Source of the DNA: a virus
Taxonomy: Duplodnaviria; Caudoviricetes
Virus record (IMG/VR): IMGVR_UViG_3300044846_004207
Span: 1 to 54,330 of that record
Direction: 5' to 3' (one strand)
Length of the DNA: 54,330 nucleotides
In this document: positions 3,741 through 54,330 of the stretch, one piece after another
Layout of the letters: every line of letters starts with the position of its first letter
Numbering within the stretch: the first letter of the stretch is position 1
Program-made: the position numbers and the translations under genes
Notes under the pieces: model-generated
Databases searched by the model: none
Told to the model about the DNA's origin: nothing
The model's input: the letters and a program-made list of their open reading frames with translations, nothing else

Positions 3741-3743
3741 AAA

Positions 3744-5307: not shown

Positions 5308-5310
5308 TTT

Positions 5311-6720: not shown

Positions 6721-6721
6721 T

Positions 6722-8523: not shown

Positions 8524-8524
8524 T

Positions 8525-10011: not shown

Positions 10012-10017
10012 TGTATA

Positions 10018-10662: not shown

Positions 10663-10669
10663 AAATAAC

Positions 10670-11314: not shown

Positions 11315-11831
11315 AATATCTTTAGACACTGAAAGAATGAAAGGTTTTGGAAATTACATTGTTGATAATTTTGAAGTAAACTACTTATTTGGTTTGAATG
11401 ACTTATGTGAAAAATATGTTAAAAAAAATTTTAAGATATTAGAACTTGGTTCAAACGAAGGTGTCAGCGCTAGACTATTTTCTTACTTTGCCGAAAAAGT
11501 TGTTTGTGTAGATTTAAATAAAACTAAATCGATGGATAAAGCAGTATCGAAACATAATAATATCATTTTTTACCATACATCATTTAAAAATTTTTTAGAA
11601 AATGATAAAAATAATGAATACGATTTAATTTACATTGATGGTGATCATGATTTCAAAAATGTAAATGAAGACATAGAATTTTTTAAAAGTAAAGTAAAAA
11701 AGGGTGGATACATATCTGGACACGATTGTAACTCAGAAACACCAGACGTTAGATTAGCAATTGAAACCCATTTTCCAAATGAGGAAATAATCTTGTTTTC
11801 AGATAGCTCTTGGTTAATTAAAATAACATAA
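11304..11831 (+). CDS. Class I SAM-dependent methyltransferase (Methyltransf_24-like)
   Basis: LELGSNEG, DLIYIDGDH, KKGGYISGHD. Confidence 0.85.
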   Translation: MENKISLDTERMKGFGNYIVDNFEVNYLFGLNDLCEKYVKKNFKILELGSNEGVSARLFSYFAEKVVCVDLNKTKSMDKAVSKHNNIIFYHTSFKNFLENDKNNEYDLIYIDGDHDFKNVNEDIEFFKSKVKKGGYISGHDCNSETPDVRLAIETHFPNEEIILFSDSSWLIKIT

Positions 11832-11848
11832 TAATAAAAATAATAAAA

Positions 11849-12418
11849 ATGTACGGAACAGAAAACAAAAAACATTTAGGTGGTTATATAATAAACTTAA
11901 CAGATCATGGAGATCCTAATTCATATTCTACGGAAGTATGGGATTGGATGATTAATAACGGTATAAAATCGATAATAGATGTTGGTTGTGGGGAAGGGCA
12001 TTCAACAAAATATTTTTTAGATAGAGGTGTCGACGCTATAGGGGTAGAAGGGGGTGAAAACGCATATAACAACAGTCCTGTCAAAAATAATTTGGTGTTA
12101 CATGATTACGTTGATGCTCCTTTTATACCAAAAAAAAAATATGATGCAGTTTGGTCTTGTGAATTTGTAGAACATGTTGAAGAAGTTTTTTCTGAAAACT
12201 TTTTAAAAACTTTCGATTTTGCCGATAAAATTTTTATGACACATGCGGTTGTTGGACAAGAAGGGTATCATCATGTAAATTGTCAGAACACAGAATATTG
12301 GATTGAAAAAATAGAAAAAAGAGGTTATAAGTATAACAATGATTTATCTATATATTTAAGAACCTTGACTGATAAAATACATGTGAAAAACACATTATTA
12401 GTGTTTGAAAAAATATGA
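11849..12418 (+). CDS. Class I SAM-dependent methyltransferase
   Basis: IDVGCGEG, EFVEH, GQEGYHHVN. Confidence 0.85.
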   Translation: MYGTENKKHLGGYIINLTDHGDPNSYSTEVWDWMINNGIKSIIDVGCGEGHSTKYFLDRGVDAIGVEGGENAYNNSPVKNNLVLHDYVDAPFIPKKKYDAVWSCEFVEHVEEVFSENFLKTFDFADKIFMTHAVVGQEGYHHVNCQNTEYWIEKIEKRGYKYNNDLSIYLRTLTDKIHVKNTLLVFEKI

Positions 12419-13064
12419 TATGAAATTAGATGATTTTATTAACATAGTAAAACCATTCACTATGACATCAGTTGAAAGAATCACTGGATTATATTATTCG
12501 TTGGAACATATAAGAATAAATAAAATTGAAGGTGATTTTGTAGAATGTGGTGTTTGGAAAGGGGGAAATGTTTTGGGTATATTAGAATATTTAACCAAAC
12601 ACAATATGACAAAAAATAATGTTTGGTTATACGACACCTTTGAAGGTATGACAGCTCCTGAAGATATTGATGTAGACTCAAGTGGTAAAAAGGGTGATAT
12701 TAAATTAGAAGAAGTGTTATGTTATTCTTCATTAAAAGAAGTTAAAAATATTTTATCTGTTTCTAGTTATCCAAAAGATAAAATTAAATTTATAAAAGGA
12801 GATGTTTGTGAAACATTAAAAACAAACGTAAACGTTCCGAAAAATATAAGTTTATTAAGATTAGACACTGATTGGTATAAATCAACAAAAAAAGAGTTAG
12901 AAGTATTATATCCACTATTGTCCTCAAAAGGAGTTCTAATTGTAGATGACTATGGACATTGGAAAGGTTCAAAAATGGCTGTTGACGAATATTTTAATAA
13001 TCTTAATTTGGATGTTGAAATACATAAACTTGACTATACTGGTATTAAAATAATTAAAGATTAA
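12405..13064 (+). CDS. TylF/MycF-family sugar O-methyltransferase (start may be the ATG at 12420)
   Basis: GDFVECGVWKGG, YDTFEG, RLDTDWY, DDYG. Confidence 0.92.
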   Translation: MKKYDMKLDDFINIVKPFTMTSVERITGLYYSLEHIRINKIEGDFVECGVWKGGNVLGILEYLTKHNMTKNNVWLYDTFEGMTAPEDIDVDSSGKKGDIKLEEVLCYSSLKEVKNILSVSSYPKDKIKFIKGDVCETLKTNVNVPKNISLLRLDTDWYKSTKKELEVLYPLLSSKGVLIVDDYGHWKGSKMAVDEYFNNLNLDVEIHKLDYTGIKIIKD

Positions 13065-13071
13065 TAAAATT

Positions 13072-13836
13072 ATGGGTGTAAGTATTGATAATTGGTTTGG
13101 TAGATTAGGTAATAATATTATACAACTAACCTCCGCTTTAAGCTTTTGTGAAAAGAATAAAACTAATTTAACAATACCAAAACATGATGTAATAACAAAA
13201 ACAGAAATAGATTTAAACGGTGAAAACAATTTAACGTACTCAAATTTATTTTGGGGTGATTATGTTTCAGATGATGAAAGACGAAAACTAGCTAAAAAAT
13301 ATATATTACCAATACTTAAACACAAAAACATTAATTTAACAGACAAAGATTTAATAATACATCTTAGGGGTGGTGATATCTTTAGCCATAACCCACCTAA
13401 AAATTATGTGCAAGCCCCCATATCGTATGTTGAAAAAATAATACAAACAGAAAACCCAAAAAATATAATAATAGTTTATGAAGATTTTTCAAACCCAAGT
13501 GTTAATTATCTAATAAATAATTATAAAAATATTGTTTTGGTTAATAATTTAATAGAAGGGATAAGTTATATTTTATCTGCAAAAAAAATAGTTATAACTG
13601 GAGTCGGAACATTTGCTAGAAGTTTGGTAATGTGTTCTAACAATATTGAAAAAGTTTTCGTACCATCTTTTTTAAAAAAAGATAATAATAATGATAACAC
13701 TCTTTATGATTATGATTGTTGTGTTGATTATTCAGATTTAGAAATAATAAAAATTAATATACCAAACTACTTAACAACCAATAGCTGGGAATGGAATAAT
13801 GAAATAAAAAATTTATATGTAACACATAAATTATAA
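13072..13836 (+). CDS. Second, divergent GT11-like fucosyltransferase
   Basis: GRLGNNIIQ, IHLRGGD, GTF motifs. Confidence 0.65.
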   Translation: MGVSIDNWFGRLGNNIIQLTSALSFCEKNKTNLTIPKHDVITKTEIDLNGENNLTYSNLFWGDYVSDDERRKLAKKYILPILKHKNINLTDKDLIIHLRGGDIFSHNPPKNYVQAPISYVEKIIQTENPKNIIIVYEDFSNPSVNYLINNYKNIVLVNNLIEGISYILSAKKIVITGVGTFARSLVMCSNNIEKVFVPSFLKKDNNNDNTLYDYDCCVDYSDLEIIKINIPNYLTTNSWEWNNEIKNLYVTHKL

Positions 13837-13867
13837 TAATTGATAACATTAAATTAAAAAATATATA

Positions 13868-14845
13868 ATGAAAAAAGCACTTATTACAGGAATTAATGGT
13901 CAAGATGGTTCCTACTTAGCCGAATTACTTTTAGATAAGGGATATGAGGTTTGGGGTACAGTAAAAAGAAATTCAGTATCAGAAACACAATCCAATAGAA
14001 TAGATCATTTAAGGGACTTTAATAAAGTAAATTTAGAATACGCCGATTTGACTGATATGGCATCTTTAATTAGAGTACTATCTTTAGTTCAACCAGACGA
14101 AGTGTATAATTTAGCAGCACAATCACACGTAAGAATATCTTTTGATCAACCAATTTATACCGCAAATGCAACAGGATTAGGTACGTTAAATTTATTAGAA
14201 GCAGTTAGGATGGTTTCACCACATTCCAAAATTTATCAAGCATCTTCATCAGAGATGTTTGGTAACAATATTGATATTGACAGTTACCAAAGAGAAACTA
14301 CCCCGATGAACCCTGTTTCTCCTTATGGTTGTGCCAAAGTATTTTCTTACAACATTTGTAAGAATTATAGAAATTCATACGGAATGAAAATTTGGAATGG
14401 TATTCTATTCAATCACGAATCACCAAGAAGAGGGACAAATTTTGTAACTAACAAAGTTGTTAAATCCGCTGTCAGAATCAAGTTAGGGTTACAAGATAAA
14501 CTACATTTAGGAAATCTTGACGCAACAAGAGATTGGGGGCACGCAAAAGATTATGTTAAGGCAATGTGGATGATGCTACAAACAGATACACCTGATGATT
14601 ACGTTTGTGCAACAGGAATATCACATTCGGTTAAAGATTTATGTGAATACACATTTACAAAATTAAATTTAGATTTTAAAGAATTTGTTGTTGTAGATGA
14701 AAAACATTTCAGACCCGAAGAATTACACGATTTAAAAGGTGACTCGTCAAAATTAAAAAATAAATTAGGTTGGATTCCTGAATACACATTTGAATCAATG
14801 TTAGACGAAATGATTCAATATTGGTTAGATTATTATGGAAAGTAA
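13868..14845 (+). CDS. gmd: GDP-mannose 4,6-dehydratase
   Basis: ITGINGQDGSYL, NLAAQSHV, QASSSE, SPYGCAK, FNHESPRRG. Confidence 0.97.
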   Translation: MKKALITGINGQDGSYLAELLLDKGYEVWGTVKRNSVSETQSNRIDHLRDFNKVNLEYADLTDMASLIRVLSLVQPDEVYNLAAQSHVRISFDQPIYTANATGLGTLNLLEAVRMVSPHSKIYQASSSEMFGNNIDIDSYQRETTPMNPVSPYGCAKVFSYNICKNYRNSYGMKIWNGILFNHESPRRGTNFVTNKVVKSAVRIKLGLQDKLHLGNLDATRDWGHAKDYVKAMWMMLQTDTPDDYVCATGISHSVKDLCEYTFTKLNLDFKEFVVVDEKHFRPEELHDLKGDSSKLKNKLGWIPEYTFESMLDEMIQYWLDYYGK

Positions 14846-15746
14846 GGTATTAATCACGGGCGGTAATGGTTTAGTTGGTTCCGAATTTAAAGGAGATATT
14901 TATTTCAAACCTACTTCTAAACAATTTGATTTGATTGATAAAAATCAAACATATAGTTTATTATTAAAAAATTTTGATAGTGTTATACATTGTGCGGCTA
15001 AAGTTGGTGGTATTGGTGGGAATATGAATTTTAAAGGAGAATTCTTTTATGATAATATAATGATGAACACAAATATTATTGAGGGATCAAGATTAACAGG
15101 TGTTAAGAATTTAGTTTGTTTTTTATCCACTTGTATCTTTCCTGATAATGTTGAATACCCGTTAACAGAACCAAAAATTCATTTAGGTCCTCCACATTTT
15201 TCAAATGATGCGTATGCTTACGCCAAAAGAATGGCTGATGTACAAATAAGAGCATATAAAGAGCAGTACGGTTTAAATTATAAATCGGTTATCCCAACTA
15301 ACATATACGGACCAAATGATAACTACAATTTAAAAAACGGACACGTAATACCTTCTTTGATACATAAATGTTACTTAGCAAGAGAAAATAAAACCGACTT
15401 TATTGTGTGGGGTAGCGGTAACCCAATGAGGGAGTTCATTTTTAGTAGAGACGTAGCAAAACTAACGGAATGGGTATTACATAATTACAACGAAAGTGAA
15501 CCAATAATACTATCAACGTCGGATGAAATATCAATAAAAGATGTGGTTGAAGTAATAATAGAGTTAATGAATTTTAAAGGTAACGTAACTTTTGACACCT
15601 CAAAACCTGACGGACAATTCAGAAAACCATCAGATAATTCAAAAATAAAAACATATTTACCTGATTTTAAATTTACATCATTATATGATGGTTTGAAAGA
15701 AACTATTGAATTTTTTGAAACTAACTATAATTTTATAAGAAAATGA
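14835..15746 (+). CDS. fcl: GDP-L-fucose synthase
   Basis: GGNGLVGS, AAKVGGI, LSTCIFP, YAYAKR, PTNIYGPND, WGSG-x-P-x-REF. Confidence 0.95.
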   Translation: MESKVLITGGNGLVGSEFKGDIYFKPTSKQFDLIDKNQTYSLLLKNFDSVIHCAAKVGGIGGNMNFKGEFFYDNIMMNTNIIEGSRLTGVKNLVCFLSTCIFPDNVEYPLTEPKIHLGPPHFSNDAYAYAKRMADVQIRAYKEQYGLNYKSVIPTNIYGPNDNYNLKNGHVIPSLIHKCYLARENKTDFIVWGSGNPMREFIFSRDVAKLTEWVLHNYNESEPIILSTSDEISIKDVVEVIIELMNFKGNVTFDTSKPDGQFRKPSDNSKIKTYLPDFKFTSLYDGLKETIEFFETNYNFIRK

Positions 15747-26060: not shown

Positions 26061-28078
26061 TGGCAAATTTTATTAAATTACAAGCATCGGTTTGTTGTAC
26101 TGAAGAGGTAGTACAATTTGTTGTTGACGATATAACTAGTGCAATAACAACAGGAAATACGTACTATTTCACCGTTGGGGAAAACCGTTACTGTGCAACC
26201 GTTGATGCAATTCAAGCCGGTGAAGGTCCAGCAAGGGCAACTTTTACTGGAGATTACACATCTTGTGAAGAGTGTTTAAGTGGAATAACAACTGCTGTAC
26301 AAGTTACAGAATGTGTAAGAGGGGAAAGTTATTTTATTGATATTGCAACATTTACAACATTACCAACAATTGGTGATGTTTATTATATGACAATAACTTT
26401 AGACGATACTATCATAACGAGTTGTTTTACCATTAGATGTTTTGTAACACCAAGAGATGGTGAGAGAATCTTAAGTTTAACATCTATTAGTGATTCATAT
26501 ACTGGATGTACCGAATGTTTAGTAAATAATTTTACAATATATCAAGTTAATACTTGTTTAGAACCCTTTACCGCCTATTATATTGAATTTCCTTCTGGTT
26601 TTGATTATAGCAACTATGTTGTGACTTTTATTGATAGTTTTGGTGATATACAATGTGGTATTACCGATACCGTCCAAGAGACTGAAGCAACAGGGACATT
26701 AATTTCTATTTTAGGTACAAATTTTGATGTTTCTTGTGAAGAATGTTTAGCAATTAGTAATGAAAAAAGAATTATAACAAATTGTTTAACAGGAGGGACT
26801 GAAGTTGTTTGGGGTTCTGTATTTTATGAAGGCGCTGAAGTCACAAATTTATCAACAAATACAGGTTGTTTTGAGGTAGGCGATTTAACTGAATCTGCAG
26901 TTACAATTAATACCTTTTTAGATTATAACCCACAACCTGATTGTCAAGAATGTATTCAGTGTGACGGCGTAGATTATTATTATTCGAGTTGTACAGAAAA
27001 CGGACCAATTGCAAACATAAGTTACGACGCAGGTTCAGAATTATTGGATGGTGAATATTTCCTTACAGGAACCACAGACGGTAATGGTGTTGGTGCATTT
27101 TTTAATGTAGTCGTTGATGGTGGTAGTATTTTAAATATTAGTTTTGGTAGTGGTATTGGTTATCAAGTAGATGATACGATATCAATAAGTTCACCTCCTT
27201 TTGGTGGTTCTGATCCATTTGTAATAACTATTACTGATGTAACATTAACTGGTATTGTTAGATCGTACCAATATGTGAATAATGCAGTTGGAAAAACGTT
27301 TTTTGTACCTCAATTAAATTCGTGTGTTGAGATTACATTAGTTGCAAACCCATCAGACGCATTACCAAATTATTATTTATATAGTTTTGATGTTTTTGAT
27401 AATTGTCCGCAGTGTGAATCAGAAGCTGATAATTTTTATATATGGAAAACAAGGGAATGTGGTACTGGTTTAAACTATATTGTTGTTTTGGATAGCAATT
27501 CTTTCACAACAGGAGACTATGTTAAAGTAAAGAGAGGGACAATTGATTTTCAGTGTCATGAATTAATATCACCATATGATTTTATAACTGATCGTAATTT
27601 GAATTCTTATATTTCAAATACAACATCCCCTTTTAGTGATTGTGAAACTTGTAATATCGGAACTTTGATTGGTGCATCCATTGTTAAATGTGGTGGTGGA
27701 GGACAACAGTTTGTTAATATTCCAATTGATATATGGAATATAATGGCATATACAGACAGTCAATTAGTGTTTGTAACTCAAAATTATGGACAATGTTATA
27801 TTTTATTAAATAGTTGTCCATTAGAACCTAATTACACGACAATAACACCCGTATCAACATATTATAACTGTATTCAATGTGTTTTTGATAACACAAGATT
27901 TCCAAGAAGTGCAAATACAGAAACTTTAATATGTGTTGTTTGTTGTGATTGTGGTTCTACAGGAAGCACAATAACCCAAGTGGCTCCACCACACCCAGTA
28001 TATACCGATCAATATGGTACTGATGTAACACAAATGAATATGGTTGTACTTGGTGGTCCAAAAGGATTGAATAATTAA
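26060..28078 (+). CDS. Cys-rich repeat protein, probable virion fibre/surface protein
   Basis: Repeated C..C..CxxC units (CEEC, CTEC, CEEC, CQEC, CPQC, CETC, CIQC) and terminal CVVCCDC. Confidence 0.65.
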   Translation: MANFIKLQASVCCTEEVVQFVVDDITSAITTGNTYYFTVGENRYCATVDAIQAGEGPARATFTGDYTSCEECLSGITTAVQVTECVRGESYFIDIATFTTLPTIGDVYYMTITLDDTIITSCFTIRCFVTPRDGERILSLTSISDSYTGCTECLVNNFTIYQVNTCLEPFTAYYIEFPSGFDYSNYVVTFIDSFGDIQCGITDTVQETEATGTLISILGTNFDVSCEECLAISNEKRIITNCLTGGTEVVWGSVFYEGAEVTNLSTNTGCFEVGDLTESAVTINTFLDYNPQPDCQECIQCDGVDYYYSSCTENGPIANISYDAGSELLDGEYFLTGTTDGNGVGAFFNVVVDGGSILNISFGSGIGYQVDDTISISSPPFGGSDPFVITITDVTLTGIVRSYQYVNNAVGKTFFVPQLNSCVEITLVANPSDALPNYYLYSFDVFDNCPQCESEADNFYIWKTRECGTGLNYIVVLDSNSFTTGDYVKVKRGTIDFQCHELISPYDFITDRNLNSYISNTTSPFSDCETCNIGTLIGASIVKCGGGGQQFVNIPIDIWNIMAYTDSQLVFVTQNYGQCYILLNSCPLEPNYTTITPVSTYYNCIQCVFDNTRFPRSANTETLICVVCCDCGSTGSTITQVAPPHPVYTDQYGTDVTQMNMVVLGGPKGLNN

Positions 28079-34129: not shown

Positions 34130-35767
34130 TTATTTTATTTTTCCCATTAAATCCTTCATTCTCAAGAATTGTGGATTTTCATAAGTTTTATTTTCAATTA
34201 GATTAGTAGAGGAACCATTAGAAGGTGTTTGAACAACTCTTCTTTCAATTGATTCTTTAATTGTATTGGTAGAACCTTTACCGTCTAATTCTGTTTTGAT
34301 TGTTTTGTATAAAGATTTTGATTCTTTCAAAGTATCAACTTCGTCAAATCTTCTAAGAATGTTAATCTTTTCTTGTTTAGTTGTTGAATGTTCTGTGAAC
34401 AATCTTGTAGAGTATGCTAAATTGGAATTGAATACAGCAACTTCATTTAATTTGTTTCTGAAGAAATCTAAAGCCTTTTTGTACTCTTCATTTTTTTCTC
34501 TCAACAAATTAACTTCTTGTTGTACAGATTCAGTATGAACTCCATTTTCTCCGTAAACAAGATTTCTGTTTGGTGTAATACCTTTTCTTAAACCTCTACC
34601 TCTTTTGGAACCTTTTCCGTAAGTTCTTGCGGCTTCGTTGTGTTCTGCTTCCATTTCATCAACTTCATCAAGTTCTTTGTCTTCCATTTCGGTAACTCCG
34701 TGTTTAATTTTAGGGTAATTGAATTTAGGTCCTTTTCTTTTGTTTTTGTCACCTAATTTCATTTCATCTTTGAAACCTTTATTGTTTACTTCCATTTTAG
34801 AGAAAGTTTTCATTGGTTTACCGAAACCAAGTCCGATAGCTCTAAATGATTCCATTACAGAATCTAAAACATCTTGATCGATTTCATAAACATTTTCTTC
34901 TTGCTCTTCTTTGTCCATATCCCAACCTTCGAATTCTTCTTCTTCATTGTACATACCTTCGAATTCTTCTTCTTCATTGTACATACCTTCGAATTCTTCT
35001 TCTTCATTGTACATACCTTCGAATTCATCTTCTTCATTGTACATACCTTCGAATTCATCTTCTTCGTTGTACATATCTTCGAATTCATCTTCTTCATTGT
35101 ACATACCTTCGAATTCATCTTCTTCGTTGTACATATCTTCTTCGTCCATATACATTTCTAAATTGTCCGACTCATCAACTTCTAACTCATATATTACATT
35201 TTCTGCCATTTGAGCTTGTTCGTTATCTTCGAAAGTGTCGTCAGCATCACTAATTAGATATTCAGCATCTGTATCGTTATCTTTCAAATGAATATAATCA
35301 TTATCCTTTTTAACAATGATACCGTCTTCATCACCCATCGCTTTGAATACTTTCAAAATTTCTTCAGGAGTTGCAGTTGTCATATCTAATGGTGGCATTT
35401 CGTCACCTTCTTCATTATCACCCATCATCATAGGTTCTTCTAGGTCTAATGTATCGCCTACATTTTCATCGCCTTGCGGCTCATCGAATTTTTCTACTGC
35501 CGAAAAATCAACCTCATCTTCTCCTTCAGGTTCAAAATCCATCTCTGCATCAGCATCAATTTCTTCTTCTCCTTCAGGTTCTTCTGGTGCATCTTGTTCA
35601 CGTAGATTTTTTTTGTAACCACCTAATGATTCTTTTACTAACTCACTGATTTCTTCCTTCATTGTAGAAGCAAGTATTCCTTTTGCGTTTTCATTGATAG
35701 CATCTTCAAGGTTTTTTATTTGTAATAAAGCCTCTTCAACTACCGATTTATTTTCATTTATTCCCAT
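34130..35767 (-). CDS. Prohead core/scaffold protein
   Basis: Highly acidic, coiled-coil C-terminus, lies between protease and capsid genes. Confidence 0.75.
   Translation of the reverse strand: MGINENKSVVEEALLQIKNLEDAINENAKGILASTMKEEISELVKESLGGYKKNLREQDAPEEPEGEEEIDADAEMDFEPEGEDEVDFSAVEKFDEPQGDENVGDTLDLEEPMMMGDNEEGDEMPPLDMTTATPEEILKVFKAMGDEDGIIVKKDNDYIHLKDNDTDAEYLISDADDTFEDNEQAQMAENVIYELEVDESDNLEMYMDEEDMYNEEDEFEGMYNEEDEFEDMYNEEDEFEGMYNEEDEFEGMYNEEEEFEGMYNEEEEFEGMYNEEEEFEGWDMDKEEQEENVYEIDQDVLDSVMESFRAIGLGFGKPMKTFSKMEVNNKGFKDEMKLGDKNKRKGPKFNYPKIKHGVTEMEDKELDEVDEMEAEHNEAARTYGKGSKRGRGLRKGITPNRNLVYGENGVHTESVQQEVNLLREKNEEYKKALDFFRNKLNEVAVFNSNLAYSTRLFTEHSTTKQEKINILRRFDEVDTLKESKSLYKTIKTELDGKGSTNTIKESIERRVVQTPSNGSSTNLIENKTYENPQFLRMKDLMGKIK
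34926..35135. repeat. Seven tandem 30-bp coding repeats (MYNEED/EEFEG) in scaffold gene
   Basis: Unit ccttcgaattc(t/a)tcttcttc(a/g)ttgtacata repeated head-to-tail. Confidence 0.95.
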
Positions 35768-37421: not shown

Positions 37422-37604
37422 ATGATTATAGTAGAAGTTAAGAATTCAAACTCAATTGAAAGTGCACTTAAAACCTATAAATTCAAAGTTTACAAAACAA
37501 AACAGAATGAAATTTTGAGAAATAGGCAAGAGTATGTGAAACCATCGGTAAAAAAAAGATCTGAAAAGAACAAAGCGATTCACATTCAGAAATTAAAAAA
37601 GTAG
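37422..37604 (+). CDS. rpsU: Phage-encoded 30S ribosomal protein bS21
   Basis: IESALKTYK-K, LRNRQEYVKPSVKKR match the bS21 signature; 60 aa, basic. Confidence 0.92.
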   Translation: MIIVEVKNSNSIESALKTYKFKVYKTKQNEILRNRQEYVKPSVKKRSEKNKAIHIQKLKK

Positions 37605-46287: not shown

Positions 46288-46794
46288 TTATTTAACTTTA
46301 ACAGAAGAACAATACTTAGATGTCATATCAGCAATCGCCCCTTTATTAGGATAAGTTCCACCGTACATTGATTGACTCATCCAATTTTTAGCACTATTGG
46401 TGTCAAAGTTTGATTCCCTACCAGTTGACTTAAAATTAATATCAGTATATGTGTCATAAGAACCACCAGTTGCTCGTCCCATAGTACCCGTATTACAATC
46501 ATAAACCATAGATGCATATGTGTCAGGTTTCCCATCCATTGCAATACGAATTCCTAATTTACCTGGTTGTACAACCATATTACCTTTATTGTCTTTAAGT
46601 TTTTGTGGGTATGCTTGAACCTTAAATTTTACATCTGCTCCTGATGCATAATTTGCTGAATATTCTCTATTTTCTATACCAATTATGCTTGTGTAAAATT
46701 CCGGAGTCATAGTTGTTGTTTCAGTTTTTTCACTGATAACTCTTTTTATAATTCTTGTTAAATCTGATTCTGTTAATCTTATAATTCTTTTCAT
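46288..46794 (-). CDS. LTESDL-leader protein, copy 4
   Basis: MKRIIRLTESDLTRIIKRVISEKTETTTMTPE leader. Confidence 0.85.
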   Translation of the reverse strand: MKRIIRLTESDLTRIIKRVISEKTETTTMTPEFYTSIIGIENREYSANYASGADVKFKVQAYPQKLKDNKGNMVVQPGKLGIRIAMDGKPDTYASMVYDCNTGTMGRATGGSYDTYTDINFKSTGRESNFDTNSAKNWMSQSMYGGTYPNKGAIADMTSKYCSSVKVK

Positions 46795-46817
46795 ATAGTT
46801 TTTTATTTTATTTTATT

Positions 46818-47321
46818 TTATACCTTTGAGCAATAATTAGATGTCATATCAGCAATTGCCCCTTGATTTTTAAATAATCCTTCTGCATTATGAAGAGTGT
46901 TTTGTAAAATTTGTTTTCCCATCGCATGATCATAATTACTTTCTCTTCCGACACCTATAATATTTAAATCACTATAATCATCACCAATATATCCCATACT
47001 TCTAGTGAATGTTCCATTTTTACAATCATAAATTGTGCGTCCATAAGTGTTAGGTTTACCTGGCAATTCTATTGTAATATACAGTTTACCTGGTTGTCTA
47101 ACTGACTCCCCTTTATTGTTTTTAACGTAATAACCTGATGGTGTAACTTTAAACATAACATTCTTTTTTGATTTATCAAAAGCCTGTAATTCTTTACCAC
47201 CTATTCCATTTATTTTAGTATAACTTTCTGGAGTCATAGTTGTTGTTTCAGTTTTTTCACTGATAACTCTTTTTATAATTCGAGTTAAATCCGATTCTGT
47301 AAGTCTTATTATTCTTTTCAT
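46818..47321 (-). CDS. LTESDL-leader protein, copy 3
   Basis: Same 32-aa leader; body homologous to copies 2 and 4. Confidence 0.85.
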   Translation of the reverse strand: MKRIIRLTESDLTRIIKRVISEKTETTTMTPESYTKINGIGGKELQAFDKSKKNVMFKVTPSGYYVKNNKGESVRQPGKLYITIELPGKPNTYGRTIYDCKNGTFTRSMGYIGDDYSDLNIIGVGRESNYDHAMGKQILQNTLHNAEGLFKNQGAIADMTSNYCSKV

Positions 47322-47341
47322 AGTTTTTTTATTTTTTTTAT

Positions 47342-47839
47342 TTATACTGATTTACAATATTTAGATATCATTGTTGCAATAGTACCTTTTACAGGATACG
47401 TACCACCCTTCAAACTTTGGTTCAATAAGGATATTGCTCGTTCTGTGTCGTATTTAGCCTCCCATCCACCAATTGAAAAAATATAATTACTGTAATTATT
47501 ATCCAAACTACCTTGTGCATAACTCATAATATTTTTTTTACAATCATATGTCATAAGAGCTTTGGTATTAAGTTTACCATCCATCTTTACTTCTATACCC
47601 AACTTGCCAGGGTCAGCCACCATATTACCTTTGTCGTCTTTTATTTTAGGTTTGTATGGTGTAATTGTAAATGTCACGGGATTACCTGATTTATCTGTTC
47701 CTGAAATGGTTCTGTCACCAACACCCCTAAATTCAGTTACTGTTTCCGGAGTCATAGTTGTTGTTTCAGTTTTTTCACTGATAACTCTTTTTATAATTCT
47801 TGTTAAATCTGATTCAGTTAATCTTATTATTCTTTTCAT
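47342..47839 (-). CDS. LTESDL-leader protein, copy 2
   Basis: Same 32-aa leader; PGKL, YDC, YC conserved. Confidence 0.85.
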   Translation of the reverse strand: MKRIIRLTESDLTRIIKRVISEKTETTTMTPETVTEFRGVGDRTISGTDKSGNPVTFTITPYKPKIKDDKGNMVADPGKLGIEVKMDGKLNTKALMTYDCKKNIMSYAQGSLDNNYSNYIFSIGGWEAKYDTERAISLLNQSLKGGTYPVKGTIATMISKYCKSV

Positions 47840-47856
47840 AATTTTTATTTTTATTT

Positions 47857-48363
47857 TTATTTTGCAGGAGTACTAGGTATTGCTGATTGTAAATTTTTAA
47901 CCCAATCCAAAACTTTAAATGATTTACTAGCACTTGAAATAAGCCCACCAGGTACTTTAGAACCATAATTATCAAAATTTGATTTAAAATAGCTAGCAAC
48001 ATTATTGTATGTTGCTTCAGTATTGAGGGGTTGTTCGGCACCTCCAACATCTATAATAGCACTTGGTTTAAGTATTTCAAGGTTTTGTCCTGATACTGCA
48101 TCCTTGAAAACGTTAAAGGTACATCTAACAGCACTATTAGCAGCAACAACTTTATAATGGTTATTTTTAGGAAAAAATGTAACCGACTCTACTACCAAGT
48201 TCCCATCATTAGGAAAAGTACAATCATACGATTTTCCATTAACTGTTATTTTTAAAGGTATTGTTTGTCCTGGGGTTAATACTGTCGTTTCCACTTTTTC
48301 ACTAATAACTCTTTTTATAATTCGAGTTAAATCTGATTCTGTTAACCTTATAATTCTTTTCAT
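47857..48363 (-). CDS. LTESDL-leader protein, copy 1 (dissimilar body)
   Basis: Same 23-aa leader; late motif at 48381-48388. Confidence 0.85.
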   Translation of the reverse strand: MKRIIRLTESDLTRIIKRVISEKVETTVLTPGQTIPLKITVNGKSYDCTFPNDGNLVVESVTFFPKNNHYKVVAANSAVRCTFNVFKDAVSGQNLEILKPSAIIDVGGAEQPLNTEATYNNVASYFKSNFDNYGSKVPGGLISSASKSFKVLDWVKNLQSAIPSTPAK

Positions 48364-48479
48364 AATTTTTTTATTTACAATATAAATATGTGTTATTTAT
48401 AAAAAAATTCTAAAGACGTATAAAAAATAAGAATTGATTAATTTTTTAATATCAATTACAATTAAAAAAAAGAAAAAAT

Positions 48480-50528
48480 ATGATTGATTCAGCAGACAGT
48501 AACGAAAAATCAAAAAACAAATCTCAGTCAAACAACTCAACAAAAACACCCGTTTTGGATAATTTTTCTAGAGATTTAATAAAATTAGCAGAGGAAGGAA
48601 AATTAGATCCGATTGTTGGTAGAGAAAATGAAATTAATAGAATTGCACAAATTTTATCAAGAAGAAAAAAGAACAATCCAATTGTTCTTGGTGAACCAGG
48701 ATGTGGAAAAACGGCAATTATAGAAGGACTTGCAAAAAAAATATTTGAAGGTGATTGTCCACAAATATTATCAAATAAACGTATTGTTTCATTGGATATG
48801 ACTTCTGTTGTTGCGGGCACAAAATACAGAGGACAATTTGAAGAAAGAATGAAGGTAATAATGGAAGAACTTTACGCAAATCCTGACATTATTATTTTTA
48901 TCGATGAAATACATACTATGATTGGCGCAGGAAACGCATCAGGTACAATGGATGCGTCAAATATCTTTAAACCAGCACTTTCAAGAGGAGAATTACAATG
49001 TATTGGAGCAACAACTTTAGAGGAGTATAGAAAAAATATCGAAAAGGATGGTGCCCTTGAAAGAAGGTTTCAAAAGGTAATGGTTGACCCATCAACAAAA
49101 GAAGAAACACTTGAGATATTAACAAATTCCAAAGAAAGGTATGAGGATTATCATAAAGTAAAATATAGTGATGAAATCTTAAATCTGTGTGTTGAGTTAG
49201 CAGATAGATATATTACAGATAGGGAATTCCCCGATAAGGCTTTTGATATTATTGATGAGGTGGGTGCAAGATCTCAAGTAGAAATTAAACTTCCTGAAAT
49301 TATTGAAGATTTAAAAAAACAGGCAGAAGAAATTAAGAAAGAAAAAATTCGTGTTATCAATAGTCAAAAATACGAAGAAGCGGCAAACTTAAGAGATAAA
49401 GAAAGAAAAATATTAATTGAGTTAGAAAAAGAAAAGGAAGAGTTTGAAAAAACCAGGAATTTATTCAAAAGAGATGTAACAGAAGATATTGTATATGATG
49501 TTGTATCCCTTATGACAAAAATTCCAATAAATAAAATTTCCACAGATGAGTCTGAACAATTAAAAACATTAAAAGAGGTTCTTAATAAAAAAGTTATCGG
49601 ACAAGATGATGCGGTTTCAAAAATTGCAAGAGCGATTCAAAGAAACAAAGTCGGTTTAAATGATCCAAAAAAACCAATTTTTAGTGGATTACTTATTGGT
49701 AATTCAGGTGTTGGTAAAACGGAACTTGCAAAACAATTAGCAAAACATATGTTCAATACAGAGGATGCTCTTATAAGGTTAGATATGAGTGAATTTTCTG
49801 ACAAAATTTCAACATCTAAATTAACGGGAACATCTCCAGGTTATGTTGGTTATGATGACGGTTCACCATTTTTAAATAAAATTAAAAACAAACCGTACTC
49901 AGTTATTTTACTTGATGAAATAGAAAAAGCACATCCTGAAATTTTTAACGTGTTTTTACAAATGCTAGATGAAGGGTTTTTAACAGATGGACACGGAAGA
50001 AAAATTAATTTTAAAAATTGTATAATTTTAATGACATCTAATGTTGGTACAAGAGCAGTACAGCAATTTGGTACTGGTGTTGGATTTTCTACTTCAACAA
50101 AAATAGAACAAAAAGAAGAAGAAATTAAATCAGTTTTAGAAAAAGAACTTTTCAAAAGATTTGTACCTGAGTTTATTAATAGATTTGATGATATTGTATA
50201 CTTTAAAGATTTGGATGAAGATGATTTAATGAAAATTATTGATTTGGAACTTGAAAAAGTTTATGAAAGAGTTAGAAAAATTGAATTTGATGTTGAAGTG
50301 GATGAATCATTAAAGAAACATATAATATCAATTGGAACTGATACTAGGTTTGGTGCAAGGATTCTAAAAAGAACTGTACAAAAATGGGTAGACGATTTTA
50401 TAACAGATAAAATTTTATCGGATAACCCTGAAAAAGGTAGTAAATTTATTTTATCTTATAATCAAAAAACCGATAAAACCGATATTAAGATTAAAAAACC
50501 AACAAAAAGAAAAATAAAAACAGAATAG
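48480..50528 (+). CDS. ClpC-like AAA+ unfoldase lacking the N-terminal Clp repeat domain
   Basis: GEPGCGKT and GNSGVGKT Walker A motifs, FIDEIH and LDEIEKAH Walker B motifs, UVR-type YEEAANLRD, GVGF loop. Confidence 0.9.
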   Translation: MIDSADSNEKSKNKSQSNNSTKTPVLDNFSRDLIKLAEEGKLDPIVGRENEINRIAQILSRRKKNNPIVLGEPGCGKTAIIEGLAKKIFEGDCPQILSNKRIVSLDMTSVVAGTKYRGQFEERMKVIMEELYANPDIIIFIDEIHTMIGAGNASGTMDASNIFKPALSRGELQCIGATTLEEYRKNIEKDGALERRFQKVMVDPSTKEETLEILTNSKERYEDYHKVKYSDEILNLCVELADRYITDREFPDKAFDIIDEVGARSQVEIKLPEIIEDLKKQAEEIKKEKIRVINSQKYEEAANLRDKERKILIELEKEKEEFEKTRNLFKRDVTEDIVYDVVSLMTKIPINKISTDESEQLKTLKEVLNKKVIGQDDAVSKIARAIQRNKVGLNDPKKPIFSGLLIGNSGVGKTELAKQLAKHMFNTEDALIRLDMSEFSDKISTSKLTGTSPGYVGYDDGSPFLNKIKNKPYSVILLDEIEKAHPEIFNVFLQMLDEGFLTDGHGRKINFKNCIILMTSNVGTRAVQQFGTGVGFSTSTKIEQKEEEIKSVLEKELFKRFVPEFINRFDDIVYFKDLDEDDLMKIIDLELEKVYERVRKIEFDVEVDESLKKHIISIGTDTRFGARILKRTVQKWVDDFITDKILSDNPEKGSKFILSYNQKTDKTDIKIKKPTKRKIKTE

Positions 50529-50529
50529 T

Positions 50530-50560
50530 TTTGTTGTTAGTAAATTTTTATATATATTTG
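50530..50560 (+). promoter_or_regulatory. Bacteroidota primary-sigma promoter
   Basis: TTTG (50530) - 19 nt - TATATTTG (50553). Confidence 0.7.
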
Positions 50561-50574
50561 TAAGAAATATAACT

Positions 50575-51414
50575 GTGAAAAATTTAGAAAAATTCAAAGA
50601 ACTCCTTGCCGTACCTTCAAAGACATATCAAGAAGAAGATATGGTGGAGTATCTTTGTGACGAACTCGATACCATACCAAACGTTTCATACTACCGAGAT
50701 GAAATGATGAACATATATGTAACAAAGGGTGAATTAGAAGAAGGTGAATACTACCCAATGTTTATTGCCCATACGGACACCGTACATAATAAGGTAGATA
50801 AAATCATCGTTAAAGAAGAAAATTTAGTAAGACCCAACACTTTTGGAAAAACTTTTGACGACAAGAAAGTCCCATCTTTGAAAGCTTATTTAGAAGATGG
50901 GACACCTACAGGTATTGGTGGTGATGATAAATGTGGTATTTTTATTTGTTTGGAACTTTTAAAAAGTTTAGATAAAGTAAAGGTTGGTTTATTTGTTTCA
51001 GAAGAAACGGGGTGTCACGGTTCTTCAAAATGTGACGAATCGTTTTTACAAGATGTTGGTTATATTACCCAATATGATGCTCCAGGAAACCATTTAATTT
51101 CTGAAATTTGTTCGGGTGTTCGTTTATTTGATCGAGATAGTGAGTTTTTTGAAAAAACAATTAAAGTAATTGAGAATGGTTTTGGAAATGAAATGTTAAT
51201 TCAGTCACATCCATATACAGATGTTTCACAATTAAAAAAGAAAATTGATGTTTCTTGTATTAATATGTCCTGTGGATATTATAATATGCACTCAAAACAA
51301 GAATTCGTATCAATTGAAGATGTTGAAAAGGCAATAAATGTTGGAAAACTAATGGTTGAAAATCTTGGTTACAAAAAATATAAGTTTGATTATAAACCTA
51401 TTGTTTATAGATAA
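50575..51414 (+). CDS. M20/M28/M42-clan zinc peptidase
   Basis: AHTDTV, GGDDKCG, SEETG, YD, GYYNMHS metal ligands. Confidence 0.85.
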   Translation: MKNLEKFKELLAVPSKTYQEEDMVEYLCDELDTIPNVSYYRDEMMNIYVTKGELEEGEYYPMFIAHTDTVHNKVDKIIVKEENLVRPNTFGKTFDDKKVPSLKAYLEDGTPTGIGGDDKCGIFICLELLKSLDKVKVGLFVSEETGCHGSSKCDESFLQDVGYITQYDAPGNHLISEICSGVRLFDRDSEFFEKTIKVIENGFGNEMLIQSHPYTDVSQLKKKIDVSCINMSCGYYNMHSKQEFVSIEDVEKAINVGKLMVENLGYKKYKFDYKPIVYR

Positions 51415-51420
51415 TATAAA

Positions 51421-52575
51421 TTAAAGAACAGAGTCGGATAAGAATCTCAAAAAGTGTTCTCTAAATTCTTTTGGGTTCCACAAGGATTGTTGATATAATA
51501 AGTTATATAATGAGTCTATATCGGTAATACCTTTTTTTACATTCATATCCCAAGTTGTGTTTGATATAAGATATGTTACTTTTAAAGTATCCTTATCAAC
51601 ATCTTTGATTTGTATTTTGTATTTCCCATCTTTAGTAGGAATCCATATACCAAACCCCCCAAGTTTTAAAACTTTATCTATTGTCTCTAAATATTTTTTA
51701 CTATAGGTATCATCTTCAAGTAACGTTTCATATAATTTTTCTAAAACACTTGTAACTTCAGAGTCAAATACGTTATTAAAAGATTCTTGATTCCAATAAT
51801 TATACATCATTTCGTAGTAATTAGGTAAATGACTTACTTTTGTTTTTTTAATTCCTTCAAATAATAAATCTAATAAATTATCTTCAGGTGCACCAAATCT
51901 TGCAAACAGTAACATAGCATCACCCCATGCAAGTTCATATTTCCAAAAACAATATCTTTGTGAATACCTTTGAATTCCAATTTCACGTAATGAATCACAA
52001 TAAGTTTTTTCTATTGCTTTTTTAATTTCATCTTCACATGCCTCAGTATTTCCGTCAACATATGCGGATTCAATATCATCTCTTACATTTGGGAAACTTT
52101 CTAAAAAATTTGCAATTTCTTTATCTAACACTTCACCTTTTTTCTCACTATTAATTAAACTATAAAGTCTTGGTGAAACAATTTTAAATATTTTAGATAA
52201 AATTTCGTAATGTTCTTTTTTAAATGATCCCGTAATATAACCCTCTCCCCAATCTTCACTCGCCCTATCCCAATATTCATTTCTATAATCATAGTTTCCA
52301 CTATACATATATTCATAATTCATAGCATCGTACTCACCATCACTATATTCTGTACCATAATCATCAGGAAAAAAGAATTGAAGATATTCTTTTAAACCAT
52401 CAAAAGTAAAAACTAAACCATCTTGAGTTACTTCTATAATATTTGAAAAATCATCTCCATTTGAGTTATAAAACCCAACCTCCCCGTATGGTAATTTTTT
52501 CTTATTAATTAAAAGTATTTTTTTAAAATCAGTTAATTCTTCTTCTTGTTCAAGAATATATCTTTTTCTTCTCAT
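51421..52575 (-). CDS. Hypothetical acidic protein
   Basis: 384 aa ORF; late motif at 52579-52586; YILE leader. Confidence 0.7.
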   Translation of the reverse strand: MRRKRYILEQEEELTDFKKILLINKKKLPYGEVGFYNSNGDDFSNIIEVTQDGLVFTFDGLKEYLQFFFPDDYGTEYSDGEYDAMNYEYMYSGNYDYRNEYWDRASEDWGEGYITGSFKKEHYEILSKIFKIVSPRLYSLINSEKKGEVLDKEIANFLESFPNVRDDIESAYVDGNTEACEDEIKKAIEKTYCDSLREIGIQRYSQRYCFWKYELAWGDAMLLFARFGAPEDNLLDLLFEGIKKTKVSHLPNYYEMMYNYWNQESFNNVFDSEVTSVLEKLYETLLEDDTYSKKYLETIDKVLKLGGFGIWIPTKDGKYKIQIKDVDKDTLKVTYLISNTTWDMNVKKGITDIDSLYNLLYQQSLWNPKEFREHFLRFLSDSVL

Positions 52576-52587
52576 ATTTATAAATAT

Positions 52588-52619
52588 ATTGTTTAAATCA
52601 AATATTTGTTTTATATTTG
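52588..52619 (+). promoter_or_regulatory. Bacteroidota-type promoter for tmRNA
   Basis: ATTG - 20 nt - TATATTTG (52612). Confidence 0.65.
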
Positions 52620-52652
52620 TATAAGTTCTTTGAAAATAAAATTACGATATAG

Positions 52653-53047
52653 GGGCCTATATTGGAATTGACGGGCATTGGTTGAATAAAAGGAGCATGT
52701 CGGGACTGAATTAATCTCGTTAAAAACTGATTCACAATACAATTGGCAATGTGCTAAACAACCTTGAGACTTTGGGACTAATCTCAACTCAAGAAGTAAC
52801 TGTAGCTTAAGAAGTTTACGGATACGCGAGCCGGTTCACATACGCTCAGGAACAGGAGTGACTAAGGTGTGGTTTCTACCCGAAAAGAAACAAAACGGGT
52901 ATGGTTCCCCGAAAGAACTGTCACCGTTTTTTGATCGGTGTGAAAAATCAAATATTTTGGGGTATTAGAAAATACCAACCTAAGCATGTAGTCGTCTTTT
53001 AAACAAGATGAGCCGGACGAGGGAGTCGGAGCCCTCTAGGTCCACCA
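52653..53047 (+). ncRNA. ssrA: tmRNA
   Basis: Acceptor stem GGGCCTA/TAGGTCC with G3-U70 and ACCA end; T-stem GAGGG/CCCTC; pseudoknot cggga/tctcg + tgaatta/tgattca; gcatg helix; tag ORF 52745-52810. Confidence 0.92.
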
Positions 53048-53050
53048 ATT

Positions 53051-53083
53051 AAAAAAACCTCACCATTTATTTGGTGGGGTTTT
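53051..53083 (+). terminator. Intrinsic terminator after tmRNA
   Basis: aaaacctcacca-tttatt-tggtggggtttt followed by T-rich run. Confidence 0.8.
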
Positions 53084-53101
53084 ATTTTTTTATTATATTT
53101 G
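53070..53101 (+). promoter_or_regulatory. Bacteroidota primary-sigma promoter overlapping the tmRNA terminator
   Basis: TTTG (53070) - 20 nt - TATATTTG (53094), 4 nt before ATG 53106. Confidence 0.65.
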
Positions 53102-53105
53102 TGAT

Positions 53106-53603
53106 ATGCAAACATTTCTTCCGTATTCAGATTTCAGATTATCATTAGAATCCCTTGACAATAAGCGTCTTGGAAAACAACGTGTTGAATCTTATCAAAT
53201 AATTTCAGCAATTACAGGTAGATTAAGAAAAGATGGAAAACCATACAAAGGTTGGTTAAACCACCCTTGTTCAGTTATGTGGAGACCTTATGTGAATGCA
53301 CTTAAACAATATTACAACGATTCCATTGATGTATGGAAATCTCGTGGTTTTAAAAACACAATGGAATATGAGATAATTGAAGGTGATTTTATTTTACCTG
53401 AATGGTTGGGAATGGAAGAATTCCATTCCTCTCATAGAGCAAACCTTTTAAAAAAAGATTCTGAATATTATACAAAAAAAGGATGGACTGAAAATCCTGA
53501 TGACCCATACGTGTGGTTGGATGAATCAAAAAAATGGTATAAACAAATGGTTGGGAGTAAAGAAAGAATTTACTTTGTGCCTAATCAGACAATTGTGGTT
53601 TGA
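53106..53603 (+). CDS. Pyrimidine-dimer DNA glycosylase / DenV-like (MSMEG_6728 family)
   Basis: MQTFLPY, LDNKRLGKQRVE, W-NHP---MW, HSSHRANLL-KD. Confidence 0.85.
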   Translation: MQTFLPYSDFRLSLESLDNKRLGKQRVESYQIISAITGRLRKDGKPYKGWLNHPCSVMWRPYVNALKQYYNDSIDVWKSRGFKNTMEYEIIEGDFILPEWLGMEEFHSSHRANLLKKDSEYYTKKGWTENPDDPYVWLDESKKWYKQMVGSKERIYFVPNQTIVV

Positions 53604-53659
53604 TTAAAAGAGTAATGTTCTCCGACAAATGATGGTATTGGAAAATTTATTGGCATATC

Positions 53660-54330
53660 TTATAAATAATATAATATTTCAGCGGTTCCCAAAAATGTCG
53701 CTGAGTTGCTTAGTGGTGTTATACATACCCACATTTCGTCAAGTGTTCCGTTAACATTAGAACCAACCCTAATTTGATTATCATCCACTTTAATTGTTGT
53801 AAGTGCGGATGTTCCTGATTCACCAATTAATGATGTCATAATGTGTCCTGGTGATGTTATTGTTGTTGTAACAGTCCCGTTATATACCGAGTATTGAAAT
53901 GGTGAATTTGGTATGTCAGTCCAACTTGGAGTTGCAGATAATGTAGGGTTATATTCAATGGTTACTAAGTAATTATCATTTGAGGTGTTTAAAATGGATA
54001 AACTACTATATTGTGATGTCACTGATTTATAACTTTCTTTAAGCCTATAACCAATATACGGATATTTTGTACCTGAAGTTCCTAAATCTGCGGTTGTTGA
54101 GTTTATAACACCAATGGTTGAATAAAGTCCATTTAATGATCCTTCGGTTGATACTTGACTACATAACATATCAAAGTATCCTGAACCAACACCTACTTGT
54201 CTTATTTCGTACCTTATTGGTTGATTTGGTGATGACATATAAACGGTAGGTATATTGTTTGCTGCGGTATAATCTAAAAAATAAAATGTCTGTCCCGATA
54301 ATACCATTCCAAATCTCATTCTACCAACAC
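53660..54330 (-). CDS. Partial probable virion structural protein (5' end lies beyond the window)
   Basis: Frame open to the window edge (..VGRMRFG..), beta/Thr/Ser-rich. Confidence 0.55.
   Translation of the reverse strand, partial: VGRMRFGMVLSGQTFYFLDYTAANNIPTVYMSSPNQPIRYEIRQVGVGSGYFDMLCSQVSTEGSLNGLYSTIGVINSTTADLGTSGTKYPYIGYRLKESYKSVTSQYSSLSILNTSNDNYLVTIEYNPTLSATPSWTDIPNSPFQYSVYNGTVTTTITSPGHIMTSLIGESGTSALTTIKVDDNQIRVGSNVNGTLDEMWVCITPLSNSATFLGTAEILYYL

Follow-up and report, generated by a model that had tools for sequence, protein, structure and literature searches.

Phages that carry a transfer-messenger RNA (tmRNA) have been reported from several groups: cluster C mycobacteriophages and Bacillus phage G (PMC4131195), huge phages in which the tmRNA is accompanied by SmpB (PMC7162821), and, in a report on Melnitz-like marine phages, 402 of 18,146 phage genomes, with the tag speculated there to serve amino-acid recycling (PMC9004378). 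For phage G, the tag is given as AKLNITNNELQVA, and the tmRNA and ClpXP genes are at separate places in the genome (PMC12484599). Clp genes have also been reported: bS21 phages of freshwater Bacteroidetes, which encode ribosomal protein bS21 and have genomes of 293 to 331 kb and 31 to 33.7% GC, are described as having a “Clp protease” and a “chaperone ATPase” (Chen et al. 2022, PMC9723584), and among the core virus orthologous groups (VOGs) of moraphages are those of a ClpA-like ATPase and of a putative peptidase (PMC12619734). The main texts of the latter two papers make no mention of a tmRNA or of the cluster described here, and no published description of this cluster or its tag was found in the main texts of the literature searched. 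The cluster, which comprises genes for a ClpC-type ATPase, a metallopeptidase, and a tmRNA, is encoded on IMG/VR virus record IMGVR_UViG_3300044846_004207. We analyzed the whole record, a stretch of 54,330 bases (CheckV completeness, 16%), and refer to it as the window.

The window is part of a ∼300-kb T4-like, bS21-encoding jumbo phage of lake/freshwater Bacteroidota; related records with 96 to 100% completeness measure 292 to 304 kb. The initial annotation had placed a tmRNA, a ClpC-like ATPase, and a zinc peptidase on the plus strand within 4.6 kb, and all three are found there (Table 1), but it had omitted a fourth member of the block, orf384, which lies on the minus strand between the peptidase and the tmRNA. 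The genes are real, intact, and conserved as a cluster. Judging from their sequences, the tmRNA, ClpC, and peptidase all look functional, whereas their coupling in one pathway is plausible but unproven.

To describe the distribution of the cluster, we used related loci from IMG/VR. A protein-based scan yielded 148 candidates, 110 of which were confirmed and the best 80 kept; a DNA pattern derived from the tmRNA added 79 loci, 39 with the same tmRNA family and the remainder chance matches. A single scan of bacterial-genome contigs gave one match, the ClpC of a Bacilli metagenome-assembled genome (44% identity). Eighty-four loci bear a tmRNA, and the 56 that extend at least 6.5 kb upstream of it are informative about linkage. 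Linkage in relatives had been set beforehand as the point on which the proposed association of these genes could fail, and it is unbroken: ClpC (on the same strand), the peptidase, and the tmRNA occur together in all 56 informative loci (43 distinct), despite inversions and insertions. Six of the 43 distinct loci have a ClpC with <70% identity to that of the window, 15 such deep loci in all hold the trio, and linkage reaches down to ∼56 to 65% ClpC identity. Loci in which the first survey detected no tmRNA end too early to be informative; in L088, the first bases of the tmRNA stand at the very end of the contig. Two loci, L089 and L090, were considered as cases of ClpC and peptidase without a tmRNA and rejected, as the tmRNA is present and split by a group I intron.

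On the other hand, the portal, terminase, and four further genes upstream of ClpC are equally collinear in deep relatives; thus, linkage is not specific to the block, which lies at the edge of a generally fixed portal-terminase core. No operon-like constraint is seen within the block. In many relatives, ClpC and the peptidase are separated by cargo genes (∼0.4 to 5.1 kb, some of them on the opposite strand), most deep relatives have the peptidase gene in inverted orientation, and the tmRNA is a separate transcription unit because the minus-strand orf384 lies before it and because it has its own terminator. In three phages of 480 to 640 kb, in which ClpC is 48 to 57% identical, no peptidase is found within 12 kb and the tmRNA is absent or far away. 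Two phages of 630 to 640 kb (LR745206.1 and LR756502.1) carry a GOLLD RNA (275 to 287 bits) and tRNAs 2 to 6 kb upstream of ClpC and encode SmpB (167 to 177 bits), with no tmRNA above the Rfam cutoff; these genomes may conceal a tmRNA that is divergent or bears an intron.

The ATPase was described in the initial annotation as lacking the N-domain while retaining the UVR motif and a GVGF loop, and each part of this description is borne out. Residues 8 to 670 align to residues 145 to 806 of Staphylococcus aureus ClpC (6em9, 679 bits), and since the alignment begins at residue 145, the N-domain of ∼144 residues is absent; the match to PHROG 4871 (E = 7.6e-222) covers profile positions 158 to 761 of 764. 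Clp_N (PF02861) was found in none of five records (the window and four relatives), including as a separate gene, and the best 120 database relatives of ClpC, 671 to 701 amino acids (aa) long, have no Clp_N either. Among 67 distinct ClpC sequences, 64 have 20 to 27 residues preceding D1, both pore loops are invariant in all, and the UVR-type motif, YEEAANLRD in the window, is kept throughout as [YF]ExAAxLRD. The docking-type loop reads GVGF in 63 sequences and GIGF in the other 4. Walker motifs are intact or conservatively changed in 63, and in 4 the D1 Walker A motif is interrupted by an intein-like insert. In Firmicutes ClpC, the N-domain mediates adaptor and phospho-arginine control, which cannot apply to the phage ClpC because this domain is absent. 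To judge by the motif, the GVGF loop most likely docks the phage ClpC on host ClpP; ClpB-type disaggregases are not known to have a ClpP-docking loop.

In one locus (L074, positions 9995 to 12529), and also in L071 to L073, L075, L077, L078, L084, and L085, ClpC is split into two open reading frames (ORFs) inside the D1 Walker A motif (GEPG / CGKT). The first ORF ends 24 residues after the Cys that opens the intein-like block, and the second starts ∼133 residues before the ...VVSHN/C junction; Pfam gives no intein match in these ORFs. The sequence suggests an atypically split mini-intein whose N-piece is very short, presumably resembling the AceL-TerL type.

The tmRNA gene is matched over its full length by the Rfam model but was not detected in the window by ARAGORN at any threshold tried, lowered ones included, most likely because of an 8-base T-loop. 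We do not count this miss against the gene. ARAGORN recovers just 18 of the 84 related tmRNA genes and, in its printed examples, gives a shorter in-frame tag or a different tag for 12 of 18. The tRNA-like domain was compared among 31 distinct tmRNAs, including that of the window and leaving out L091, whose extraction is incomplete. The acceptor stem is fully paired (7/7) in all of them; it exists in six variants with compensatory changes, and the third pair is G:U in all six. The window tmRNA has G3:U70, discriminator A, and an encoded CCA, and the CCA is encoded in 22 of the 31 distinct genes. The T-stem is likewise paired throughout (5/5), in 12 variants with compensatory changes. A nonstandard 8-base T-loop (AGTCGGAG) is present in 13 of the 31, the window among them, and the usual 7-base loop (TTCGAnn) in the other 18. 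Because T-loop type, acceptor type, and pseudoknot regions are reshuffled among phages whose ClpC proteins are 85 to 90% identical, the tmRNA gene is a mosaic.

Two kinds of rearrangement are seen within or near tmRNA genes of relatives. In L089 (12510 to 13097) and L090, a group I intron (Rfam RF00028, 72.5 bits) lies inside the T-loop, and the Rfam tmRNA model misses the gene because of this interruption; an intron at the same T-loop position is known in a clostridial tmRNA. The tag of both loci is GKTFAKMAALGLTREAVVVAA. In L027 (17011 to 17093) and L044 (15296 to 15372), a second, partial copy of the tmRNA 3′ end (77 to 83 bases; 90% identical in L027) lies 0.5 to 2.3 kb downstream of the gene, and the two copies bracket variable cargo genes; this looks like the scar of an insertion or allele swap at the tmRNA 3′ end.

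The 21-residue tag of the window reads GNVLNNLETLGLISTQEVTVA. We examined its reading frame in an alignment of 32 distinct tmRNAs, the window's own and those of related loci. Pairwise codon differences in the GGC frame (starting at 52745) are 410 synonymous and 448 nonsynonymous, compared to 140/718 and 0/854 in the two shifted frames, and the 21 open codons are kept in 31 of the 32 tmRNAs. The first 13 codons also vary synonymously, which argues that the long 21-codon frame is the translated one. This pattern of substitutions identifies the tag frame as coding and under purifying selection. The tag family can be written approximately as G-[ND]-V-L-x-[NK]-[LM]-[ES]-x-[LVI]-G-L-[ILV]-x-x-x-[EQD]-V-[TSA]-V-A (85 of 160 sources examined).

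The peptidase matches Pfam marginally (M42, 29.9 bits with a cutoff of 23.2; M20, 25.3 bits with a cutoff of 24.6) and also matches PHROG 4191 (E = 1e-39), and its family is found in 89 phage records. Its AF2 model (pLDDT, 90.4) is matched by Foldseek to PepT (3gb0, E = 1.8e-12), to TET peptidases (E = 2.4e-12; TET1, 2wyr), and to the catalytic domain of DapE. The protein has neither the lid/dimerization domain of M20 nor the PDZ-like oligomerization domain of M42 TET enzymes, being 279 aa long compared to 330 to 410 aa in the matched structures; TM-scores normalized to the targets are 0.47 to 0.56, rising to 0.62 to 0.63 for isolated DapE catalytic domains. Residues H66, D68, D117, D118, E143, E144, D168, and H239 are invariant in 39 peptidase sequences and are candidate metal ligands plus the putative catalytic Glu. 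The window peptidase does not have the ∼70-aa C-terminal tail present in close relatives.

The fourth member, orf384, evolves fast and has relatives in the same slot (19 to 49% identity, with diverged forms in L091 and L177). It has no Pfam or PHROG match, and its AF2 model (pLDDT, 87.2) has no fold match in PDB or BFVD at E ≤ 0.001 and no usable match in the ESM Atlas. We considered orf384 as a hidden SmpB or adaptor and rejected it as SmpB, since this confident model matches no fold in PDB or BFVD and the ESM Atlas offers no usable match.

The initial annotation had noted that the window contains no clpP or smpB and had proposed that the phage borrows both products from its host. Neither gene was found in the window, and the same holds for relatives: none of 10 related records yielded a ClpP and none of 37 an SmpB, and each set includes three records that are 96 to 100% complete. 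The search for SmpB did find a phage SmpB in three of six other phage records, from megaphages, which makes the blank result in relatives meaningful. We infer that host ClpP and SmpB are needed because the phage encodes neither.

Outside this phage group, the closest peptidases of cultured phages are those of Cellulophaga podophages of the genus Callevirus (33 to 36% identity). In phi38:1 and Calle_1 (73 kb), a tmRNA (Rfam, 87.6 and 86.6 bits, respectively) shares the strand of the peptidase and lies ∼1.3 kb upstream of it; the gap between tmRNA and peptidase in the window is 1,238 bases. The callevirus tag has 30 residues, GNNTNAVNAQIEANMEAVNAILNLEVAVGV, and ends in EVAVGV. In phi38:1, the only callevirus tested in this respect, no AAA_2/ClpC-type ATPase was found; thus, a long nonstandard tag needs no phage ClpC. 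No SmpB was found in phi38:1 or Calle_1. The Calle tmRNA has been published, and the available text of that account does not mention its proximity to the peptidase (PMC8776804). In the phi38:1 record (NC_021796.1), Rfam finds a full tmRNA at positions 26803 to 27164, where hypothetical gp041 and gp042 are annotated instead. Among 10 peptidase-bearing phages tested, 6 have no tmRNA (VP93, PP16, EF1, Jenst, Tsamsa, and Nate).

Table 1. Coordinates of the tmRNA-ClpC-peptidase block and of other features in the window
Feature	Position	Strand	Basis or remark
N-domain-less ClpC-type double-ring AAA+ unfoldase, 682 aa	48480-50528	+	Pfam AAA, AAA_lid_9, AAA_2, ClpB_D2-small
ClpC motifs: D1 Walker A; D1 pore loop KYRG; UVR-type M-domain motif	residues 71; 115; 298		
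ClpC motifs: D2 Walker A; D2 pore loop GYVG; ClpP-docking-type loop GVGF	residues 407; 454; 533		
Lid-less MH-clan (M20/M42-like) metallo-exopeptidase, 279 aa, GTG start	50575-51414	+	Pfam, PHROG, fold match
orf384, conserved fast-evolving protein, 384 aa	51421-52575	minus	Fourth block member, between peptidase and tmRNA, transcribed away from tmRNA
One-piece tmRNA	52653-53047	+	Rfam RF00023, 75.4 bits (gathering score 47), E = 1.5e-27, model 1-374, full length
Tag reading frame	52745-52810	+	Resume codon GGC, 21 codons, stop TAA
Intrinsic terminator of tmRNA gene	53054-53083	+	12-bp stem, then T run; sole plus-strand terminator-like site in 48000-53700
Motif GTTCTTTGAAAATA	52625-52638	+	Just upstream of tmRNA 5′ end, kept in relatives; read from sequence
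Pyrimidine-dimer DNA glycosylase	53106-53603	+	Pfam Pyr_excise, E = 3.6e-20; 59 bases after tmRNA
gp23-type capsid protein, gp20-type portal, gp21-type prohead protease, large terminase	32-42 kb	minus	Structural/packaging genes
Ribosomal protein bS21	37422-37604	+	Pfam PF01165, 40.3 bits; strand opposite to surrounding head genes
Glycan synthesis cluster (glycosyltransferases, UDP-galactopyranose mutase, GDP-mannose 4,6-dehydratase, epimerase)	1375-15746	+	Sugar-nucleotide genes

We favor a reading, to which we assign a probability of roughly 0.45, in which these genes serve ribosome rescue and protein turnover in parallel and are kept together by descent and shared timing, with no closed circuit in which ClpC specifically reads the tag. 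The block would be a conserved island of auxiliary genes on the margin of the head-packaging module, transcribed separately and each in need of a host partner. The tmRNA would be charged by host alanyl-tRNA synthetase (AlaRS) and delivered by host SmpB; during infection, it would release ribosomes that have stalled on mRNAs that are broken or cleaved, and it would add a phage-family-specific 21-residue tag. The N-domain-less ClpC would be an unfoldase freed from N-domain-based adaptor control and docked via GVGF on host ClpP, and the lid-less M20/M42-type exopeptidase would trim short peptides to amino acids. Together, the trio may sustain translation capacity and amino-acid supply in the infected cell. 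The use of host partners, the substrates of the enzymes, and this physiological role are what we infer from the genes. The terminator of the tmRNA, the minus-strand gene, the cargo insertions, and the peptidase inversion mark separate units, favoring parallel action, and the presence of bS21 suggests that the phage invests in translation more generally.

Some observations weigh against parallel action. The tag is strongly conserved, its C-terminal EVTVA above all, which implies a specific reader, and the adjoining adaptor-free unfoldase is an obvious candidate. The unbroken linkage of the trio exceeds what simple drift predicts. Finally, the location of a tmRNA 1.3 kb from the peptidase in the unrelated calleviruses hints at a functional tie between these two.

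Exceptionless linkage and a conserved, nonstandard tag ending in TVA are also what a dedicated tag-and-degrade route would leave, one in which a tag read poorly by host ClpXP is read by the pore loops of the phage ClpC and fed to host ClpP, with the exopeptidase yielding amino acids. Consistent with such a route, ClpC keeps its ClpP-docking-type loop though the phage has no ClpP. Escherichia coli ClpA continues to degrade ssrA-tagged proteins after loss of its N-domain; direct reading of a C-terminal tag is thus possible for a class I unfoldase that has no such domain. Amino-acid recycling by tag-and-degrade has been proposed for another phage tmRNA (PMC9004378). However, recognition of the tag by ClpC is conjectural, and covariation between tag and pore loops is uninformative because the loops show no variation. 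Calleviruses have a long tag while phi38:1 is without a ClpC-type ATPase, synteny is common to neighboring structural genes, and the members of the block are separate transcription units with cargo inserted between them. A dedicated route of this kind appears rather unlikely to us. The initial annotation had suggested it as a private module; its linkage and its dependence on host partners stood, whereas the unspecific synteny and the ClpC-independent tag of phi38:1 tell against it. A phage-private degron system in a wider sense, with the phage's own tag added via host SmpB, an adaptor-free ClpC on host ClpP, and the phage exopeptidase, and with a leaner tmRNA-plus-peptidase version in Cellulophaga podophages, is doubtful as well.

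The calleviruses also allow a different grouping, in which the tmRNA and the peptidase would be the functional pair in phages of Flavobacteriia and ClpC an add-on of jumbo phages; the peptidase would act on the products of trans-translation, for example, by trimming or degrading tagged fragments or released peptides. Two unrelated Bacteroidota phage families have a tmRNA 1.2 to 1.3 kb from a member of this peptidase family, and it is the callevirus peptidases that are the closest cultured-phage homologs of the one in the window. However, these are two lineages only, and the intervening genes differ: orf384 here and a phosphoribosyltransferase and a hypothetical protein in calleviruses, where no relative of orf384 follows the peptidase (hhalign probability, 0.1%). 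The two genes are 131 kb apart in LR756504, a tmRNA is missing from all six peptidase-bearing phages tested that are not from Bacteroidota, and an exopeptidase fold offers no obvious means of reading a tag. We regard such a pair as quite improbable. Least credible, and in our view very improbable, is a ClpC that serves as a ClpP-independent chaperone for virion assembly or remodeling, next to a peptidase that processes virion or host envelope proteins and an unrelated tmRNA: in all relatives, the structural module is the immediate neighbor of the block and the “chaperone ATPase” is among 16 families common to bS21 phages (Chen et al., PMC9723584), but a G(V/I)GF ClpP-docking-type loop, needless for such a chaperone, is present in 67 of 67 sequences.

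Both tmRNAs and Clp genes have been described in phages before. This lineage offers a conserved tag under purifying selection together with a naturally N-domain-less ClpC that would act without N-domain adaptor control. If the private degron system were true, the phage rather than the host would decide which proteins get recycled during infection. The calleviruses phi38:1 and Calle are cultured and tractable and have a long-tag tmRNA beside the same peptidase family, making the reader of a phage tag directly testable. Since standard tmRNA detection misses most of these genes, phage tmRNAs are probably undercounted in large-phage surveys.

The surroundings of the block add some detail. The motif GTTCTTTGAAAATA upstream of the tmRNA is a candidate promoter element, and the window has an extra 14 bases between it and the mature tmRNA 5′ end. 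We rejected the Bacteroidota-type promoter motif TANNTTTG as support, as it is not enriched in the window (108 found versus 104 expected), and discounted the isolated copies that precede the tmRNA, peptidase, and glycosylase genes. Close relatives have 0.3 to 3.8 kb of variable cargo between the tmRNA and the pyrimidine-dimer glycosylase, and deep relatives have tRNA arrays instead, 5 to 8 kb downstream of the tmRNA. An SmpB gene between the tmRNA and the glycosylase of relatives was considered and rejected, the ORFs there being variable cargo. Between the capsid and prohead-protease genes, a very acidic protein of 545 aa (34130 to 35767, minus strand) with ∼7 tandem MYNEE(D/E)EFEG repeats has no Pfam match and is possibly a scaffold or prohead-core protein. 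Four tandem paralogs of 165 to 168 aa (46288 to 48363, minus strand) are near-identical in their first 25 residues (MKRIIRLTESDLTRIIKRVISEK) and continue with unrelated sequence; the same leader is also found on cargo genes of relatives.

Several known systems resemble this locus in part. By architecture, the window phage is like bS21 phages and moraphages in its ∼33% GC, its sugar and glycosyltransferase genes, its Clp ATPase, and the placement of its bS21 gene, which is encoded opposite to the TerL-portal-protease-capsid genes that surround it (PMC9723584, PMC12619734). Its ClpC shares with Firmicutes ClpC (S. aureus, 6em8/6em9; Bacillus subtilis, 3j3s) both AAA+ modules (D1 and D2) and the UVR-type M-domain, along with Walker motifs, pore loops, and the ClpP-docking-type loop, and an aromatic residue, Tyr, is aligned to F436 of S. 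aureus ClpC; unlike the Firmicutes protein, it has no N-domain. As in known phage tmRNAs, a complete tmRNA gene is found in a lytic phage. Phage G resembles the window phage in that its tag also ends in VA and it also has Clp genes, but its tmRNA and ClpXP are apart, whereas here the tmRNA is fixed beside ClpC and the peptidase across a phage group (PMC12484599). Some huge phages encode their own SmpB, and none was found in the related records searched here. With the bacterial tmRNA-SmpB/ClpXP/ClpAP system, the locus shares a tmRNA made in one piece, in which an alanine-identity acceptor stem is combined with an internal reading frame for the tag, as well as a Clp/Hsp100 unfoldase with a ClpP-docking-type loop, which in the phage is encoded near its tmRNA. 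Unlike bacteria, the phage has no SmpB or ClpP, as judged from the related records searched, and encodes no ClpX; its tag is 21 residues long and ends in TVA, its unfoldase is of the ClpC type without an N-domain, and the hand-off from tag to unfoldase is putative.

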